Assembly (NCBI GenBank): GCA_963667785.2
Contig: CAXXMU010000001.1
Location: forward strand, 672,001-736,000
DNA length: 64,000 nucleotides
Source of the DNA: Alphaproteobacteria bacterium
GTDB taxonomy: Bacteria > Pseudomonadota > Alphaproteobacteria > UBA828
Direction: 5' to 3'
The translations under genes were made by a program, and so were the position numbers. Below the pieces are notes generated by a model, which was not told the origin of the DNA, did no database searches, and worked only from the letters and a program-made list of their open reading frames with translations. How positions within the stretch are numbered: position 1 is the first letter of the stretch; every line of letters starts with the position of its first letter. Shown piece after piece: positions 28,907-45,821 of the stretch.

Positions 28907-29530
28907 ATGACCGCCGGCGACCCACGGGCGACCTATCGGCGCATCGCGCCCTTCTACGACTTCCTGGACGGGCCCTTCGAGCGCGGCCGCTACGCGCAGC
29001 TGCGCGGCGGGCTCTTCGCGGGCCTGGAGGGGCGGGTGCTGGATGCCGGCGTCGGCACCGGCCGCAACATCCCGCACTATCCGGCGCACGCGGACGTGAT
29101 CGGCATCGATCTCTCGGCGGCCATGCTGGTCCGCGCCAGGCGGCGGCGCGACGCGTGCGCCCGGGACGTGCCGTTGGCGGCGATGGACGTGCTCGGCACC
29201 GGCTTCGCCGACGCGAGCTTCGACGCCGTGGTCGCGAGCTTCCTCTTCTGTGTGATCGGCGCCGGGCAGCAGCAGGCGGCGCTCGTGGAGCTCGGGCGCA
29301 TCGTGCGGCCCGGCGGCGAGATCCGCCTGCTGGACTATTCGCTCTCGAAGCGCCCGGTGCGGCGCTTCGTCATGGGCCTCTGGGCGCCCTGGGTGCGCTG
29401 GGCCTACGGCGCGGGCTTCGACCGCGAGACCCACCGCCACGTCGAGCCCGCCGGCCTCGTGCTGGCGGAGAACCGCTTCCTGATCGACGACATCCTGAGA
29501 TACGTGGTCGCGCGCCGGCCGCCGGGATAG
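28907..29530 (+). CDS. Class I SAM-dependent methyltransferase
   Basis: [29 protein letters not shown]. Confidence 0.88.
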
Positions 29531-29841
29531 CCCGCATTTCTCACCAGGGTCATGGTCTGCGCGGCGCTGTCCGGCCGACAGGGTAGGAGAGGCGCGCAGC
29601 GCGTCGCGCGGGTACGCGCGCCTTCGGCGCGACGCGGGACATCGGGCAAGCGTCTCGACGCACACTGTCGGCCGGAGAGCGTCGCCCTTCGGGTCGCGCC
29701 CAGGCGCCCGCCCGCGTCGCGCGTCCACGCGCGCGGAGCGCACGATGCGGCCCTCAACCGTATTCCCTGATACGCTTTTCGGCCCGCTCCTAGCGGATCG
29801 AACGCTTGGTGCGCGACGCAGGCCGTGACCCTGGTGAGAAA
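29528..29841. mobile_element. MITE-like element with long terminal inverted repeats; right TIR truncated at the island junction
   Basis: tttctcaccagggtcatggtctgcg (29537-29561) pairs with cgcaggccgtgaccctggtgagaaa (29817-29841) with 2 mismatches; the missing TIR tip (tgcgggcta) is found at 49434-49442. Confidence 0.65.
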
Positions 29842-30031
29842 CCATAGTGAGCCACTTGTGCCTCCTAGTTCCCTGATGTTCCTGAAACGGCCTGGATGTT
29901 GATTTTGTTGTGATATTCGAATGGCCTATCCGGCCTCAAGCGGCCGGGAGGAGCCCCGAGCAGTCCTGAAGCTACTTCCATGTGTTGTGGCAGGTGTTGA
30001 TTTGTATGTCTCGTCATGACACAATCCATGC

Positions 30032-31300
30032 ATGTCAAATATATCCGGAAAGCGCGTCGCACGCGTCAAGCTCACAGTCGCCAAGCGCGCCATCGACAGC
30101 CTCAAGCCAGCCGAGAGGCCATGGATCGCGTGGGACGACAAACTCACAGGCTTTGGCGTCCAGGTCCACCCCTCCGGCGTCAAGTCGTATATCGTCAACT
30201 ACCGGCCCGGTTTGGGAGGCAGGGCGGCGCCCAACAAGCGCCTCGTCATCGGACGCTGCGACAGGATGGCGGCCGAGCACGCGCGTCGCGAGGCCCACAG
30301 GCTGCTCGGTATGGTCGCAGTCGGCGAGGACCCGGCGGCGGATCGCGCCAGGAGCCGGCGCATGCCGCTCCTCGGGCAGGCCTTCGAGGAGTACATGAAG
30401 GCCAATCCCAAGCGGAAGGCGCGCACCAACGAGCACTACCGCGATCGGTTCGAGCGGCCTCTCGCGGACTGGCTCGGCCGTCCCCTCGACGCCATCACGC
30501 GTAGCGACGTGGAGGACCGTTTCAACCGCATCACCGAGAAACACGGCTGGGCGACCGCGAATCAGTGCATCTCCCTGCTGCGCTCGGTCTATCGCCGGCC
30601 CTGCGTGGACCACGAGGGATTGGCCAATCCCGTCGATCTCTGGCTCGCGGGCGGCGGCAGGTTTCATCCCAAGCCGCGCCGCAAGATCCCGCCGCCGGCC
30701 GAGGTGCTGCCGTGCTGGCGGAAGGGCATAGAGGCCGTGGTGAGCAACCCCGCCCTTCGGGACGTGTTCTGGTTCGGCATGTACACCGGGATGCGGCGCG
30801 GCGAGGTGATGCCGCTCCGCTGGGATCGTGTCGACAGGGAGGCAGGGGTCTTCCGTTTGGACGAGACCAAGACGGGCACGCCGCTGGAGTTGCCGATCAC
30901 CCGGCAGCTCGCAGCCATCCTCGATCGCCGCTGGGCCGCGAGCGGCCATCTGAAGGGCGGCTGGGTGTTTCCCTCCGCCTCCAGCCGCACGGGCTACTTC
31001 GTGAAGCTGACCTATTTCCATCGCCGCATCAGCGAGGCCGGGGGTGCGAAGTTCTGGTTCCACGGGATGCGCAATTGCTTCATCACGGTGGCCGAGCGCG
31101 AGCTGATGCTGCCGCACGCTCTGACAAAGCGGCTGGTGAACCATGCGCCGCCCAACGACGTTACAGAGGGCTACGCCGCCGACTGGACCATCGGGCAACT
31201 CCGAGAGCCCGCTCAGCGCATCGCGGATCGCATCGAGGCGTTGATGGGAGCCGAGGCCCGCCATGTCATCGGGGGAAGGGCAGTGCTCGGGCAATCATAG
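30032..31300 (+). CDS. Tyrosine recombinase/integrase with arm-DNA-binding N-terminal domain
   Basis: WDDKLTGFGV arm domain; catalytic R (TGMRRGE), K (TKTG), HGMR, H (VNH), Y (TEGY). Confidence 0.92.
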   Translation: MSNISGKRVARVKLTVAKRAIDSLKPAERPWIAWDDKLTGFGVQVHPSGVKSYIVNYRPGLGGRAAPNKRLVIGRCDRMAAEHARREAHRLLGMVAVGEDPAADRARSRRMPLLGQAFEEYMKANPKRKARTNEHYRDRFERPLADWLGRPLDAITRSDVEDRFNRITEKHGWATANQCISLLRSVYRRPCVDHEGLANPVDLWLAGGGRFHPKPRRKIPPPAEVLPCWRKGIEAVVSNPALRDVFWFGMYTGMRRGEVMPLRWDRVDREAGVFRLDETKTGTPLELPITRQLAAILDRRWAASGHLKGGWVFPSASSRTGYFVKLTYFHRRISEAGGAKFWFHGMRNCFITVAERELMLPHALTKRLVNHAPPNDVTEGYAADWTIGQLREPAQRIADRIEALMGAEARHVIGGRAVLGQS

Positions 31301-31337
31301 CCTGAAAAACGCAGGTTCAAGTCCTGCCCCGCAACCA
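31295..31337 (+). pseudogene. Degenerate tRNA-Met(CAT, initiator-type) 3' half / att-like relic
   Basis: tcatagcctgaaaaacgcaggttcaagtcctgccccgcaacca resembles the fMet tRNA 3' half (CAT anticodon, T-arm, CCA); 5' half decayed. Confidence 0.7.
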
Positions 31338-31341
31338 CTGA

Positions 31342-31374
31342 AAACGGCGCTAACTTAATGAGTTAGCGCCGTTT
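31342..31374 (+). terminator. Intrinsic terminator-like hairpin
   Basis: aaacggcgctaact-taatg-agttagcgccgttt, perfect 14-bp stem followed by T-rich sequence. Confidence 0.7.
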
Positions 31375-31585
31375 CTCGTTTTCAACTCCCTGTAATTCTT
31401 CCAGACTGGCAAACTATTGGCAAACGTTTTGGATCAATCTCCAGGCCTCTCCAGGCGGCTAAGGGCCGTTTTCGCTCGTTCACCGGATGAAGAATTGTAA
31501 GCGATGGAGTGGACGCCCCTCCCGACGGCATCGCGACGTGCCATGTTGGCGGTGGTGTTAACGCCAAGAGAGGAAAGGGGCGCCC

Positions 31586-32608
31586 ATGGACCAAGCTACC
31601 ATGATCGGGATCGATCTTGCGAAGAACAGCTTTCAACTGCACGGCGCATGGGCCGACGGATCGGTGGCGTTTCGCAAGAAGCTGAGCCGGGGGAGAGTAC
31701 TGGAGTTTCTGGCATCCCAGCCGAGTTGCGAGGTGGCGATGGAGGCCTGCGCCGGCGCTCATTACTGGGGTCGGGAGATCGGCGATCTGGGTCACACGGT
31801 GAGGTTGATCCCACCGCAATATGTCAAGCCTTACGTCAAGCGTCAGAAGAACGACACCGCGGATGCAGAGGCGATCTGCGAAGCGGCGTCTCGTCCAACG
31901 ATGAATTTCGTGGCGGTCAAGACGGCGGAGCAGCAGGGTCGGGTGATGCTGTTCCGGACACGCGATCTGCTGGTGCGTCAGCGCACCCAGACGATCAACG
32001 CGCTACGCGGCCATCTGGCGGAGTTCGGCATCGTTGCGGCCCAGGGTCCCGCTCATGTCGACCGCCTGGCACCGGCGCTCGAGGATCCAGGCTCAGACCT
32101 GCCGGACACGGTCCGCGAGCTGGGCACGCTTCTGCTCGAACAGATCGCCGGGTTCAACGCGAAGATCGAGTGCCTGGAGAAGGAAGTCCACGCGAGTGCG
32201 CGGCGGGATGCAGAAGCACGGCGCCTGATGAGCGTGCCGGGGATTGACCCGATCACCGCGATGGCGATCCAGGCCTTCGCACCGCCGATGGAGACCTTCC
32301 GGCGCGGCCGGGACTTCGCCGCCTGGCTCGGCGTTGTGCCGCGCCAGCACTCGACCGGTGGCAAGCCGCGGCTGGGTAAGATATCGAAGATGGGCCAGCG
32401 CGATCTCAGGCGTCTGCTGATCACGGGCGCCATGGCGGTCATCCGCTGGGCGATCCGGCGCGGCAAGACGAACGATCCGTGGCTCGTCAGGATGCTGGCG
32501 CGCAAGCCGAGGATGCTGGTCGCCGTGGCGCTGGCCAATCGGATGGCGCGCATCGTTTGGGCGCTGATGACCAAGAAGGAGAGTTACCGGGCTCCCGCCG
32601 TCGCCTAA
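31586..32608 (+). CDS. IS110 family transposase/recombinase
   Basis: RuvC-like DEDD (GIDLAK, MEAC, KND..DAEAI); C-terminal catalytic Ser in QHSTGG; VAVALAN. Confidence 0.96.
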   Translation: MDQATMIGIDLAKNSFQLHGAWADGSVAFRKKLSRGRVLEFLASQPSCEVAMEACAGAHYWGREIGDLGHTVRLIPPQYVKPYVKRQKNDTADAEAICEAASRPTMNFVAVKTAEQQGRVMLFRTRDLLVRQRTQTINALRGHLAEFGIVAAQGPAHVDRLAPALEDPGSDLPDTVRELGTLLLEQIAGFNAKIECLEKEVHASARRDAEARRLMSVPGIDPITAMAIQAFAPPMETFRRGRDFAAWLGVVPRQHSTGGKPRLGKISKMGQRDLRRLLITGAMAVIRWAIRRGKTNDPWLVRMLARKPRMLVAVALANRMARIVWALMTKKESYRAPAVA

Positions 32609-32862
32609 GAGGCGGCCAGGCGGGTAGCTGTCGGGGACGTGGGCAGGTCTGAGGAAAGGCAAGGGCAAACGGTCAATCGAGACGGGATCGGGAAAACCAG
32701 CTTCCGGATGCGGAGCCTTCGAGCTCGCGTAAGCGATATGGACCCGGTCCGCGCATCTCCATGAAGGCCCGCGGCGTGTGAAGTGCCGCAACGAGAGGCC
32801 GGACACACGACAGCACCTGACCGCGTGCATCCAGTCGACCGAAGAAAATGCTTGCGTCAAAC
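32609..32862 (+). ncRNA. Putative bridge RNA/seekRNA of the IS1111-type element (ends approximate)
   Basis: Contains target matches ccggatg (32704-10) and gtaagcg (32729-35), and donor-junction matches ctccat (32757-62) and acacacg (32803-09), each pair flanking a hairpin. Confidence 0.75.
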
Positions 32863-32896
32863 GGGGCGTCCACACACGTCCGGTGAAGACCGCAGC

Positions 32897-33028
32897 TCAC
32901 ACAGTACCATCCCCGATCGATATAGCGATCCGGCGCTCCGTGATCGTTAGCTCGTCGTCGAGGCCGCGCCCGAAGATGTGAACTAAGAAGGTTTCGCTGT
33001 TGCCGCGCTGTGCGCTGCCGATCTGCAT
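32897..33028 (-). CDS. Putative 43-aa small protein (copy 1) MQIGSAQRGNSETFLVHIFGRGLDDE-LTITERRIAISIGDGTV
   Basis: GGGAGG SD before ATG; first 26 codons shared with copy 2 with only synonymous changes. Confidence 0.45.
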   Translation of the reverse strand: MQIGSAQRGNSETFLVHIFGRGLDDELTITERRIAISIGDGTV

Positions 33029-33140
33029 GGTGCCGCCTCCCGTTGGCCGGTCGATGAAGACGGCGGGCACGGCCCTCGCCGGAAGCCCACGCCCGCCGCC
33101 CGGCTACCGGCCAGGCTCTCCCTCTCGTCGGCGTGAGGGC
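32950..33140. repeat. 191-bp direct repeat copy 1 (copy 2 at 45743-45933)
   Basis: Manual alignment: no indels, about 15 mismatches. Confidence 0.9.
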
Positions 33141-33714
33141 CAAGAGCCCGGCGCAGAGAGCGAACGGGGTGCTTCGCAGACATTCGTGCGCCGGCGGGTC
33201 GCACCTGTATGTTGGGCAGAGAAGAGTTGGAGGGCGTTGGCTGCCGGCGGGAGCTTGAGGGCCGGCCGAGAACCAGCGATTGCGCTGCCCTAGCCCCTGA
33301 TTGCGCGCTAGCCTGTGGCCCCCGCCGGATCCTTACCGCCGATCAGCATGTAAGCGTATACATCGCAGCTCTCCGCTCGCCTCCGCGGGACGCCACTTCA
33401 TTTGACACGAGCTAGGTTCAGAGCTTCCTAGGCGAGCTGGGGAACTAGCTCCTCATCGGCTGTAGCCTCTAGACACTCAACGCGGTAAGGATCATGATCG
33501 AAGCGTCATGCTGCCGCTCCAACACGGTCACAGCCCGTTCGACACTGTGATACGGACCGTACACACCGGAGGCCCTGCCGTTGCCGGCCCTGCTGGCGCC
33601 TGAACTCAGTTACCCGGCCACTTCAGCCATGATTTCGCCCACAACTTTAGACTAACTTCAATCTGGACCACCCGACTAGTCCGGTGTGTCAAGTACCAGA
33701 CATTGTCAGGAGAA

Positions 33715-35988
33715 ATGATGCCTACCCTCTACCGAGATACCGGCTATTCGTTGACTCATCTGATCGAGGATATCAAGCATGACAATATCGCCCTGCCAGA
33801 GATCCAGAGACCGTTTGTCTGGTCGTCGGCCAAAACACGGGACCTCTTCGACTCGATGTATCGCGGCTATCCCGTTGGGACGCTCCTATTTTGGGAAACA
33901 GGCGCGGAGGTAGGCACTCGCCAAATCGGCGGCGGAGACAGTAAAAAGGTGGCTAAGCTCCTCATCGTGGACGGTCAGCAACGCTTGACGTCGCTCTTCG
34001 CCGTTCTCACAGGGAAACCCGTCCTGACCAAGATATTTGAGGACAAACACATACGATTAGCGTTTCGCCCTAGCGACGAAACATTCGAGGTAACGGACGC
34101 AGCTATCCGTCGAGACCCGGAGTTTATTCCCGATATTACTGTATTGTGGGCTGAAGGGTATAAGTCGACCGTTCGCGATTTCATGACCCACCTCTCCGAG
34201 AATCGCGACACTATGCCTAGCGACGCCCAGCAGGATCTGCTCGAAGAAAGAATTGATCGTGTGCGCGACCTGCGAGACTTTCGTTTCCAAGTTATTGAAC
34301 TCAATACTAGAGCTAATGAGGAGCAAGTTGCGGAGATATTCGTACGCATCAACTCTGAGGGCGTCAAACTTAATCAGGCAGACTTCATCCTTACTCTAAT
34401 GTCTGTTCATTGGGAGGAGGGGCGCCAACAACTGGAAGCCTTCTGTCGTGCTGCCGTTGATCCGAAAGTCTCCAGTCCCTCGCCAAAAAACGTTTTCATT
34501 GACCCCAGTCCCGATCAACTCTTGCGGGCTGGTGTCGGACTGGCCTTTCATCGCGGTCGACTTCAACATGTCTACAACATTCTTCGCGGAAAGGATCTTG
34601 AAACAGGCCAAGTCTCTGAAAACAGGCGAACACAGCAGTTCCACAACCTACGACGCGCGCAGCAGGTCGTCGTCGACTTGACCAATTGGCACGAGTATTT
34701 TAAGTGTCTATCCTATGCCGGCTTCCGCAGTCGCCGGATGGTGACATCTGAAAACGCACTCATATATACATATCTGTTTTGGCTGATAGGTCGGCGCGAC
34801 TTTGGTTTGGACCTAAAGGTGTTGAGAAGACTCATAGCCCGATGGTTCTTCATGTGTCATACGACAGGGAGGTACACCTCGTCCCCGGAAAGTCAAATTG
34901 AGGCTGACCTTAGTCGAGTATCGTCTCTACGTCCTGGCGACGCCACTGCCTTTTGCGAAGAACTCGATCGTATTGTCAGATCAAACTTCACCGGAGACTA
35001 CTGGGCTATTTCACTGCCAAACAGACTAGATACTTCAGCCGCGCGTTCTCCAGCTCTTTTCTCATACTGGGCTGCACTTAATCTACTTGATGCGGAGTGC
35101 ATGTTCAGTGACCTTAGAGTTCGAGATCTATTTGATCCAATGTCAGTTGCTCCACGAGGAATCGAACAGCACCACTTGTTCCCGAGAGCGTATTTGGCAG
35201 GCGTAGGTATATCATCGACTAGGCAAGTTAACGCCATAGCCAATATGGCTTTTTTGGACTGGCCCGAGAATGTCGAAATCGATAAAGACACACCGAGCGA
35301 CTATTGGTCAGCCATGACCGCCGATATGAATAAGGACCGGCTAGAGCAACAGGCTTACTGGCATGCCCTTCCAGCCGGCTGGAGCCATCTCGATTACCCG
35401 ACCTTCCTCGAACGACGACGAACATTGATCGCTACAGTGGTGCGAGATGGATTTGATACCCTGTGGGAGGATCGGAAGCCACTGCGAACAGCATCACTAC
35501 AGGACCTTTTAGTTGTCGGCGAGTCGCAAACTTTGGAGTTCAAGGCCGCCGCACGCTGGAATCTGCACACAAGTCAGGTAGACAAGAGGATTGAGCACGC
35601 CATTTCCAAAGCAGTATGCGGCTTTCTGAATGCAGAAGGGGGAAAACTCTTGATCGGTGTAGACGACCTTGGAAGACCCACTGGTCTTATCAATGACATG
35701 AAGACATTGCGAAATAAGCCAAACAGAGACGGCTTCGAACTGTTTCTTAGGCAGCATTTTGACAATAGTCTCTCTGTAAAAGCTGGTAGTGCTCTGAAAG
35801 TGGAGTTTGAGGAGTTGGAGGGCAAAGATGTTTGCATTGTGACTGTCGCCGCGTTCGGCAAGCCAGTGTTTGCCAAGGCAGCGGCAGGTAGCCAGGAGCC
35901 GTCCGAGTTTTGGGTGCGCATGGGGAACGCCACCAAGCAATTGCATGGCGACGATATGGTCCAGTATCAGGCCAGTCGGTGGAGTTGA
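33715..35988 (+). CDS. GmrSD-type (DUF262+HNH) modification-dependent nuclease fused to a C-terminal Schlafen/AlbA_2 domain
   Basis: LPEIQRPFVW, IVDGQQRLTSL, FVRINSEG (DUF262); EQHHLFP...NMAFL (HNH-like); GESQTLEFK, CGFLNAEGGKLLIGVDD (AlbA_2). Confidence 0.85.
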   Translation: MMPTLYRDTGYSLTHLIEDIKHDNIALPEIQRPFVWSSAKTRDLFDSMYRGYPVGTLLFWETGAEVGTRQIGGGDSKKVAKLLIVDGQQRLTSLFAVLTGKPVLTKIFEDKHIRLAFRPSDETFEVTDAAIRRDPEFIPDITVLWAEGYKSTVRDFMTHLSENRDTMPSDAQQDLLEERIDRVRDLRDFRFQVIELNTRANEEQVAEIFVRINSEGVKLNQADFILTLMSVHWEEGRQQLEAFCRAAVDPKVSSPSPKNVFIDPSPDQLLRAGVGLAFHRGRLQHVYNILRGKDLETGQVSENRRTQQFHNLRRAQQVVVDLTNWHEYFKCLSYAGFRSRRMVTSENALIYTYLFWLIGRRDFGLDLKVLRRLIARWFFMCHTTGRYTSSPESQIEADLSRVSSLRPGDATAFCEELDRIVRSNFTGDYWAISLPNRLDTSAARSPALFSYWAALNLLDAECMFSDLRVRDLFDPMSVAPRGIEQHHLFPRAYLAGVGISSTRQVNAIANMAFLDWPENVEIDKDTPSDYWSAMTADMNKDRLEQQAYWHALPAGWSHLDYPTFLERRRTLIATVVRDGFDTLWEDRKPLRTASLQDLLVVGESQTLEFKAAARWNLHTSQVDKRIEHAISKAVCGFLNAEGGKLLIGVDDLGRPTGLINDMKTLRNKPNRDGFELFLRQHFDNSLSVKAGSALKVEFEELEGKDVCIVTVAAFGKPVFAKAAAGSQEPSEFWVRMGNATKQLHGDDMVQYQASRWS

Positions 35989-45686: not shown

Positions 45687-45821
45687 TCACACAGGACGGA
45701 TCTCGCCGTCGGCCATCGAGCGGAAGCGCTCGACGACATAGCGCTCGTCGTCAAGGCCGCGCCCGAAGATGTGAACGAGGAAGGTTTCGCTGTTGCCGCG
45801 CTGCGCGCTGCCGATCTGCAT
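45687..45821 (-). CDS. Putative 44-aa small protein (copy 2) MQIGSAQRGNSETFLVHIFGRGLDDE-RYVVERFRSMADGEIRPV
   Basis: Same SD, start and first 26 aa as copy 1. Confidence 0.45.
   Translation of the reverse strand: MQIGSAQRGNSETFLVHIFGRGLDDERYVVERFRSMADGEIRPV

Follow-up and report, generated by a model that had tools for sequence, protein, structure and literature searches.

Predicted bispecific guide RNA in the right end of an IS1111-group insertion sequence from an alphaproteobacterial genome

A stretch of 64,000 nucleotides from the genome of Alphaproteobacteria bacterium (NCBI GenBank assembly GCA_963667785.2, contig CAXXMU010000001.1, positions 672,001 to 736,000), hereafter referred to as the window, contains a transposase gene followed by a non-coding region, and the question raised by this locus is whether that region encodes an RNA which directs the transposase both to its target and to the ends of its own insertion sequence (IS). 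A first-pass annotation, made from the sequence alone, had recognized in this region four short motifs matching target and donor DNA and had proposed a programmable RNA-guided recombinase. According to the comparison with homologues described below, the element is an intact member of the IS1111 group of the IS110 family, with a DEDD/Ser-type recombinase that is very probably guided by a bispecific non-coding RNA, encoded downstream of the transposase gene and on its strand, in the 3' non-coding region. The features of the element are detailed in Table 1.

The four motifs stand where the first-pass annotation had placed them, CCGGATG at 32704-32710, GTAAGCG at 32729-32735, CTCCAT at 32757-32762 and ACACACG at 32803-32809. 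Its target site GTAAG-CG-TCCGG, its donor ends ACACA-CG and CG-ATGGAG and its CG core were likewise recovered at both junctions, the left one reading GTAAG-CG-ATGGAG from position 31497 and the right one ACACA-CG-TCCGG from position 32872. All four motifs occur together within 270 nt at one place of the 64-kb window (search windows starting at 32540-32704, + strand) and at none on its - strand, and among 200000 composition-preserving shuffles of the 270-nt region none held all four and 29 held three or more. Single motifs are not rare in the window, with 4 + 1 occurrences of GTAAGCG and 14 + 19 of CTCCAT on the two strands, and the decisive weight therefore rests on covariation in homologues.

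Target guides and flanking DNA in homologous elements

Homologues were collected by a back-translated pattern scan over one genome per species, in which 468 stretches encode a relative of the transposase; the best 80 of these 468 loci, with 53-85% identity, were kept. A total of 99 transposase copies were covered by tblastn to residue 330 or beyond. From these, 26 copies with no recognisable repeat pair in the search windows or situated at a contig edge were excluded, and four of the 73 retained were removed for a poor repeat score, leaving 69 copies. One of them (L108) was left out of the statistics, which are based on the other 68, with 51 distinct guide sets among them. Alignment A1 was built from the 58 different non-coding regions found in these 68 copies, among them that of the window (L084). 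Copy L108 (at ~297), 89% identical in protein sequence to the window element, carries a 59-nt insertion that splits its guide-2 region and probably disables its targeting.

The hosts of the relatives are Alphaproteobacteria and metagenome-assembled genomes labelled as several other phyla, and the non-coding region is kept downstream of homologous transposases across many phyla. Searched alone at the DNA level, this region was recovered from 13 of the 43 other genomes searched in the family, every one of the 13 a member of the same genus (13 of its 20 other genomes). No close homologue was encountered among the matches listed, the nearest genome copies outside the genus showing 81% identity and the nearest plasmid-borne homologue 68%. 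All 69 copies have a common end architecture, consisting of flank, 2-nt core, 5-nt end and repeat on the left and of repeat, 3 nt, core and flank on the right. The left end is core-ATGGR-GTGGAYGCC in most of them, with few variants (ATGGT, ATGCT, ATAGG), the core is CG, TG or AG, and the three terminal bases are ACA, AGA, ATA, GCA or GGA. Flanking DNA is unrelated from locus to locus; where relatives with identical guides are inserted at different loci (L028/L029/L030, L011/L013/L014 and L101/L091), only the short target is common.

Both target guides change with this flanking DNA. Guide 2 (GUAAGCG), the left-target guide, reads as the top strand of the left target half-site (LT) plus the core, and it was identical to its own left flank plus core at 7/7 positions in 34 of the 69 copies and at 6/7 or more in 60, over 40 distinct guide sequences. 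In the per-position matrix, agreement at LT-5 to LT-1 was 0.78-0.93 (0.26-0.34 expected) and fell to background at LT-6. Guide 1, the right-target guide, reads CCGGAUGC in the window, where it spans LT-1, the core and positions +1 to +5 of the right target half-site (RT). In a fixed register, with G:U pairs allowed, it was complementary at 7/7 positions in 21 of the 69 copies and at 6/7 or more in 34. The register of guide 1 moves by one or two bases in some sub-lineages, and a register-free measure was therefore also used, namely the longest common word, with the 68 copies collapsed to 51 distinct guide sets.

With this measure, the longest match between the reverse complement of guide 1 and its own right junction averaged 6.63 nt, compared with 3.32 nt for the junctions of other elements, and that between guide 2 and its own left flank 6.12 nt, compared with 3.27 nt for the flanks of others. 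The match sums over the 51 guide sets were 338 for guide 1 (172.8 ± 7.0 when permuted) and 312 for guide 2 (169.4 ± 7.3), values reached by none of 10000 permutations in either case. The crossed controls remained at background, with 3.41 for guide 1 on the left flank and 3.39 for guide 2 on the right flank. Position by position, the complementarity of guide 1 to RT+1 to RT+6 was 0.60-0.79 (0.38-0.42 expected), and its family-wide coverage extends over RT+6 to RT+1, the core and LT-1. The first-pass annotation was right to take ccggatg as the right-target guide, its match of 6/7 becoming 7/7 against the top strand with a U:G pair; the guide is one base longer than described, C32711 pairing with LT-1 (0.78 observed, 0.40 expected).

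Two segments of one internal loop thus correspond to the two halves of the target, each to a different strand, and vary together with it; their order is that of the IS1111 group, the guide complementary to the top strand (guide 1) lying 5' of the bottom-strand one (guide 2). The variable core is tracked as well by guides 2 and 4, at 0.95-1.00 (0.45-0.46 expected). The first-pass annotation had named beforehand an absence of covariation between guide positions and targets in homologues as the result that would speak against it; covariation is present, at a score that none of the 10000 permutations attained, and it supports a programmable RNA-guided recombinase as the probable nature of the system.

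The cores of the two junctions are not always equal. The right-junction core is CA or AA in five of the 69 copies (L098, L009, L010, L023, L079), whose guide and left junction have CG or AG, and in L040 and in the L043 group the left-junction core is TG, with CG in the guides and at the right junction. Since the two junction cores of one element can differ, these sequences suggest that a core mismatch is tolerated at insertion. Another observation concerns two copies of a sister IS (L063 at ~1500 and L111 at ~1828), which are inserted inside the right end of another family member. Their joined flanks resemble the conserved CTTGCATCA...GGAGG-CG-TCCACAGATG end of an element of the L012/L017 type, and it is to the subterminal inverted repeat of this sibling that the guides of both copies (GGAGGCG; reverse complement GTCCATAGA) are directed.

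Donor guides, predicted RNA fold and probable transcribed strand

The other two motifs change with the ends of the element. Guide 4 (ACACACG), the left-donor guide, equals its own right end plus core at 7/7 positions in 62 of the 69 copies, over 16 distinct end variants, and in five of the seven exceptional copies the sole difference is the second core base at the right junction. Within the left-donor half (LD), positions LD-4 and LD-2, together with core position 1, were tracked at 1.00 (0.65, 0.51 and 0.46 expected, respectively); coverage extends over LD-5 to LD-1 plus the core and is at background at LD-6. Guide 3 (CUCCAU) is the right-donor guide, as had been proposed. Its complementarity was 6/6, with G:U allowed, in 41 of the 69 copies, over 7 variants. 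It covers positions +1 to +6 of the right-donor half (RD) and leaves the core unpaired (0.17 observed, 0.17 expected), RD+5 covaries (0.76 observed, 0.58 expected), and the guide follows the left-end variants ATGGT, ATGCT and ATGGG. Two segments match both element ends and change with them, guides and ends being linked on one element.

This linkage gives room to an alternative in which only the target arm guides, as a short seekRNA, and the protein reads the ends via the subterminal repeats, CUCCAU and ACACACG being conserved for other reasons, e.g. as DNA sites or by co-inheritance with the ends. A seekRNA of 70-100 nt from ISEc11, with target matches only, was reported to suffice for transposition, the role of the long form being left open (PMC11187229), and guide 3 is devoid of any core complementarity. 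Guides 3 and 4 share one element with the ends that they match, so the correlation is inflated by shared descent; an example of such lineage correlation is a column of the long-range stem P1 that agrees with LD-9 at 0.95 (0.64 expected). Shared descent alone, however, does not repeatedly bring two separate sites to the same letters, as is seen for guide 4 in those 62 copies and 16 variants, nor does it fit with the tracking of three independently varying right-end positions at 1.00 with a sharp boundary at LD-6. Furthermore, conservation with compensatory changes extends to the donor-module hairpin and to P1, and donor-binding nucleotides in a multiloop have been reported for bridge RNAs of IS1111 elements (PMC11208160). 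The short guide RNA is thus considered an improbable explanation, and an RNA which reads both target and donor is preferred.

The fold of such a bispecific RNA is conserved. The target arm and the donor hairpin were predicted by RNAalifold from the aligned sequences, and P1 was added by eye. Over the six helices, with 30 pairs, 94.5% of 1733 cells were standard-paired in A1, compared with 21.8-44.4% when the 3' partners were slid by 1-3 columns. Changes on both sides were detected in 22 of the 30 pairs, and none of 500 column shuffles reached any of the five measures. Helix 1 (P1) was paired in 84.9% of cells, with both-side changes in 3/6 pairs (e.g. GGUCA/UGACC and GAUCGG/CCGAUC); helix 2 (GGAUCGGG/CCCGGUCC) in 93.9%, with changes in 8/8 pairs; helix 3 (CCA/UGG) in 97.7%, helices 2 and 3 together showing changes in 11/11 pairs; helix 4 (GAGC/GCUC) in 96.1%, with changes in 4/4 pairs; helix 5 (GGCC/GGCC) in 98.7%, nearly invariant and therefore uninformative by itself; and helix 6 (GCGGC/GCCGC) in 100%, with changes in 4/5 pairs. 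The stems named in the first-pass annotation, which are helices 2, 4 and 6, are therefore real and conserved in homologues.

This conserved secondary structure presents the guides in loops. The target guides are the two strands of one internal loop capped by the GAGC hairpin, and the donor guides stand on either side of the GGCC/GCGGC hairpin, in a multiloop closed by P1, which encloses a structured core of ~154 nt (32670-32823). That the four matches are due to chance, or that the region acts solely as double-stranded DNA (protein sites, promoter) with no RNA guide, would be compatible with the frequency of each motif in the window, with a single-sequence fold of no unusual stability and with the lack of an Rfam match, the guide RNA being deduced from sequence data. 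It is extremely improbable in view of the shuffles, none of 200000 with the four motifs, of the permutations for each target guide (none of 10000) with clean crossed controls, and of the compensatory changes, seen in 22 of the 30 pairs of the helices, that sites acting as double-stranded DNA would not require. Transcription of a real guide RNA from the - strand deserves next to no credence: guide matches alone do not fix the strand, as their sense swaps with the DNA strand, and no promoter was called on either strand, but the helices contain 83 G:U cells and 44 A:C cells, an excess which favours the + strand, guide 1 of the window needs at the core a U:G pair that would become C:A, a mismatch, on the opposite strand, and the published IS1111 model places the long RNA on the strand of the transposase mRNA, with which it is co-transcribed (PMC11187229).

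Several data weigh against a bispecific guide RNA encoded on the + strand by a functional element. The minimum free energy (MFE) fold of 32609-32880 was -98.9 kcal/mol, compared with -103.9 ± 4.9 kcal/mol for shuffled sequences (z +1.02), and 169 of 200 shuffles folded at least as well, a result that by itself speaks neither for nor against a structured RNA; the MFE structure contains P1 and the target-arm stems. Rfam 15 (4227 models), searched over 31200-33200 with E up to 10, gave no match at the gathering score and five chance-level snoRNA/sRNA matches, the best of 15.5 bits against a gathering score of 40. The excess of G:U over A:C is just ~2:1. The own match was below 6 in 14 of the 51 guide sets for guide 1 and in 18 of 51 for guide 2, and the right flanks of L004, L005 and a few other copies misfit their own guide. 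As donor guides and ends are inherited together, their covariation is less independent than is the case for the target guides. One metatranscriptome (X1) contained related sequence, 0.06 of the sampled words; the four runs compared consist of contigs, mostly of 85-95% relatives, that are uninformative on transcription and on RNA ends. Finally, the own genome has one full copy of the element and no exact free target GTAAGCGTCCGG, and no clean empty site was found in relatives; therefore, activity of the window copy can at most be inferred. Sites with one mismatch to GTAAGCGTCCGG numbered 17 in the own genome, compared with 20 for a reversed-pattern control, and the target is thus not a repeated sequence there.

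Anatomy, proposed mechanism and genomic context

On the basis of the sequence and of its relatives, one intact IS1111-group element occupies 31504-32878 of the window, on the + strand (Table 1). Its subterminal inverted repeats, of 11 bp, are followed by terminal extensions of 5 nt at the left and 3 nt at the right, core excluded; a length of 7-17 bp has been reported for the repeats of IS1111 elements (PMC11208160). The longer non-coding region is located downstream of tnp, the right end having 270 nt and the left end 82 nt. Insertion is site- and orientation-specific, with no long target duplication and with the shared core CG at both junctions.

Table 1. Coordinates in the window of the features of the IS1111-group element and of its target site.
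Feature	Position	Strand	Characteristics
Left target half-site (LT) GTAAG	31497-31501	+	Outside the element; identical to guide 2
Core CG, left junction	31502-31503	+	Both junctions carry CG
Left end, 82 nt	31504-31585	+	Contains right-donor half-site ATGGAG (31504-31509) and left subterminal repeat
Left subterminal inverted repeat GTGGACGCCCC	31509-31519	+	11/11 complement of 32863-32873
Transposase gene, 340 aa	31586-32608	+	DEDD (RuvC-like) N-terminal domain and Tnp C-terminal domain
Right end / 3' non-coding region, 270 nt including core	32609-32878	+	Predicted to house the bridge/seek RNA
P1, 5' strand CGGUCA	32670-32675	+	Long-range stem enclosing both guide modules
Target-arm closing stem, 5' strand GGAUCGGG	32685-32692	+	Followed by AAAA and 3-bp stem CCA (32697-32699)
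Guide 1 (right-target guide) CCGGAUGC	32704-32711	+	Complementary to top strand 5'-G-CG-TCCGG-3', one G:U
Hairpin GAGC-CUUCGA-GCUC	32713-32726	+	Caps target-binding loop
Guide 2 (left-target guide) GUAAGCG + AU (32736-32737)	32729-32737	+	Pairs with bottom strand of LT and core
3' strands: UGG stem (32739-32741) and closing stem CCCGGUCC (32743-32750)	32739-32750	+	Helices 2 and 3
Guide 3 (right-donor guide) CUCCAU	32757-32762	+	Complementary to top strand of IS left end ATGGAG
Donor-module hairpin GGCC-C-GCGGC...GCCGC...GGCC	32766-32800	+	Helices 5 and 6
Guide 4 (left-donor guide) ACACACG, with next two bases (32810-32811)	32803-32811	+	Sense of last 5 IS nt and core
P1, 3' strand UGACCG	32818-32823	+	Partner of 32670-32675
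Candidate -35 box TTGCGT (family consensus CTTGCA)	32852-32857	+	Putative; promoter complete only in circle
Right subterminal inverted repeat GGGGCGTCCAC	32863-32873	+	Partner of GTGGACGCCCC
Core CG, right junction	32877-32878	+	From the sequence and its relatives
Right target half-site (RT) TCCGG	32879-32883	+	Outside the element

The transposase has the DEDD N-terminal domain and the IS116/IS110/IS902 C-terminal domain of the family, with Pfam scores of 52 bits for PF01548 (cut-off 29) and 82.7 bits for PF02371 (cut-off 21.3), and 319 bits (cut-off 140) for NF033542 of NCBIfam, 'IS110 family RNA-guided transposase'. Its C-terminal domain aligns to the structures of ISCro4 (E 1.4e-11) and IS621 (E 1.2e-8), and the DEDD residues D10, E53, D90 and D93 are in motifs aligned with the ISCro4 chain. 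The motif G-L-x-P-x-x-x-x-S(T)-G, with its Ser/Thr nucleophile, is represented by G249-V-V-P252-R-Q-H-S256-T257-G258, in which the first residue after G is V, not L; the form described for IS1111 transposases is G-x-x-P-x-x-x-x-(S/T)-G (PMC11187229). The residues H-S-T-G-G align on E-S-G-S-S of IS621, with T257-G258 on its S-G. By count, and allowing for a two-residue offset in the deposited chain, T257 would correspond to S241, the catalytic serine of IS621 (Hiraizumi et al., PMC11208158). At the sequence level, the element agrees in every respect with the IS1111 group and with its bridge/seek RNA.

Further repeats were observed in the element. A second internal inverted repeat is formed by CCCGACGGC in the left end (~31524-31532) and GCTGTCGGG just past the transposase stop (~32627-32636); GCTGTCGGG reads GCCGTCGGG in most relatives, and one lineage (L024) has the matched double change CCCGGCAGC / GCTGCCGGG. 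The left end also contains the conserved hairpin GGCATCGCGAYGTGCC. In the own genome, contig C2 carries a relic (L003, ~1490-1550), the left end of a related IS with 84% identity over 49 nt (...TGATGGAGTGAGCGCC...GACGGCATCGCGAAGTGCC) and no transposase gene behind it.

Expression and processing of the RNA, its binding by the protein and the chemistry are proposed by analogy with IS621 and ISEc11. As in these elements, the IS would excise as a circle joining ACACA-CG-ATGGAG, and transposase and RNA would be read from a promoter formed at the circle junction, probably as one transcript. Of the two loop strands of the target arm, CCGGAUGC on the 5' side would pair with the right target half and the core on the top strand, and GUAAGCG on the 3' side with the left target half and the core on the bottom strand. 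In the donor module, CUCCAU would pair with the IS left end on the top strand, and ACACACG with the IS right end and the core on the bottom strand. Recombinase dimers loaded with both RNA modules would then bring together the circle junction and GTAAG-CG-TCCGG, with strand exchange at the CG core.

The candidate -35 box overlaps a conserved CTTGC (32851-32855), of which T244 and G246 are invariant and C243, T245 and C247 are conserved at 90% or more; a spacer of 17 nt would put the -10 at CACG-AT, across the junction. The scan of 31400-33000 detected no sigma-70-like promoter in the linear element, and two terminator-like sites in the same interval, both on the - strand inside tnp (1.0 expected). 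Given the conserved CTTGC and the lack of a promoter in the linear element, a single transcript from a junction promoter is probable; such co-transcription of transposase mRNA and seekRNA was proposed by Siddiquee et al. (PMC11187229).

When the IS is taken out, the target site (31481-31502 joined with 32879-32887) folds to a 9-bp stem, TTCACCGGA/TCCGGTGAA, with a 16-nt loop, and the insertion point is at the 3' loop-stem border of this hairpin. A structural target rule was rejected, as the other 14 reconstructed sites are devoid of a consistent hairpin.

The IS lies between the gene of a P4-type tyrosine integrase (30032-31300; PF13356 and PF00589) and that of a 761-aa protein (33703-35988) with GmrSD_N and Schlafen/AlbA_2 domains. 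Judged from the domains of these neighbours, the IS belongs to an integrative island whose cargo is defence-like (GmrSD-like gene). In 8 of the 20 genomes of the genus, the sequence directly after the integrase gene is conserved beside related integrases; this homology of the left flank ends 35-40 nt before the insertion point. Two loci considered as empty sites (L116 and L120) were rejected, as their sequences merely resemble the joined target. A tRNA-like 3' fragment seen by eye after the integrase gene was not confirmed, ARAGORN finding no tRNA in 29000-34000. Outside the element, a 51-bp stretch of the right flank (32950-33000) is repeated at ~45743-45793, ~12.8 kb downstream, with 94% identity.

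Handshake positions and comparison with known systems

In IS621, handshake guides lie directly 3' of the top-strand guides, i.e. the right-target guide (RTG) and the right-donor guide (RDG), and pair with non-cognate DNA after exchange (PMC11208158). A handshake of this type was rejected for the present family: the base after guide 1 plus core complements LT-1 (0.78 observed, 0.40 expected) and not LD-1 (0.10 observed, 0.10 expected), and for the bases that follow guide 3 the per-position matrix shows no match to the core or to LT-1. The first-pass annotation had pointed to the 'at' after gtaagcg as a possible handshake-like guide. This AU (32736-32737) matches RD+1 and RD+2 in 0.83 and 0.76 of the 58 sequences, values equal to those expected, both partners being nearly invariant. 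At the other bottom-strand guide, base 32810, which follows guide 4 plus core, equals RT+1 in 20 of the 51 guide sets (11.5 expected; 16 of 20000 permutations), and the next base matches in 20 of 51 (15.5 expected; 481 of 20000 permutations); in the window itself, one of these two bases matches the right target. The signal at 32810 is modest, and it was obtained among related sequences.

When the element is read in reverse, the order of the RNA is that of the IS621 layout (LTG'-hairpin-RTG'-core-handshake, LTG being the left-target guide), and the 'at' of the first-pass annotation would therefore be the natural homologue of the handshake in the target-binding loop (TBL) of IS621. A location of the handshake positions of this IS1111 clade 3' of the bottom-strand guides, and not of the top-strand guides as in IS621, is a tentative proposal, with the odds rather against it. 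If true, IS1111-type recombinases would first exchange the bottom strand (in transposase orientation), and there would be a mechanistic reason for the 'reversed order' left open by Siddiquee et al. In the literature searched, no statement on a handshake guide in IS1111-type elements was found; the sole handshake passage in the main text of PMC13604230 concerns IS621, and PMC13626964 names IS1111 in its reference list only.

This kind of system has been known since 2024, and its arrangement is as known for IS110/IS1111. It is not new because bridge RNAs were predicted in 93.0% of the catalogued IS1111 elements (PMC11208160), the name of NF033542 already includes 'RNA-guided', and homologous transposases are present on at least 5000 plasmid records. 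Donor matches and the multiloop of other IS1111 elements may already be depicted in Supplementary Figs 6-7 of PMC11187229 and in Extended Data Fig. 10 of PMC11208160. The added value is thus modest and consists of a family-wide table of natural guide sets, of exact guide lengths and of a possible mirrored handshake. The table comprises ~50 naturally reprogrammed guide sets with sharp boundaries and natural core variation (CG, TG, AG). The guide lengths are 5 + 2 nt for the bottom-strand guides, ~6 + 2 + 1 nt for the right-target guide and 6 nt, with no core, for the right-donor guide. These guides could be used in the engineering of bridge recombinases of the IS1111 type, which are less studied than IS621. 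For its own genome, the result is a correct and complete annotation of one mobile element, with its predicted guide RNA.

The element shares its main characteristics with the IS1111 elements for which seekRNAs have been described, ISEc11, ISPa11, ISKpn4 and ISPst6 (PMC11187229). Common to all are a transposase of ~340 aa with the motif G-x-x-P-x-x-x-x-(S/T)-G (G249..P252..T257-G258 in the window element), subterminal repeats with short extensions, and a long non-coding region downstream of tnp. The guide order is the same, with the match to the top strand on the 5' side and that to the bottom strand on the 3' side (section 'A seekRNA finds the target' of PMC11187229), and the two matches overlap in the target. 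The core of ~154 nt falls within the range of the long seekRNAs, 145-172 nt (PMC11187229; PMC13604230, Table 1), and bridge RNAs of IS1111 elements are likewise encoded in the long right end, often with the donor guides in a multiloop (PMC11208160). Unlike these four elements, which were characterized by co-purification and reprogramming, the window element is known from its sequence, and its target is GTAAG-CG-TCCGG.

As in IS621 (PMC11208160, PMC11208158), a single predicted RNA carries target and donor modules, the protein has DEDD and Tnp domains, and the core dinucleotide is common to donor and target. Each module is likewise formed by a bottom-strand guide for the left half and a top-strand guide for the right half, beside a capping hairpin. 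Similarity between the two proteins is mostly confined to the C-terminal domain. The RNA of IS621 is encoded in the left end, in the order LTG-hairpin-RTG, with a simple internal donor loop and the core CT; by contrast, the RNA of the window element would be encoded in the right end, in the order RTG-hairpin-LTG, with the donor guides in a multiloop closed by P1, the core CG (TG or AG in relatives) and candidate handshake positions only 3' of the bottom-strand guides.

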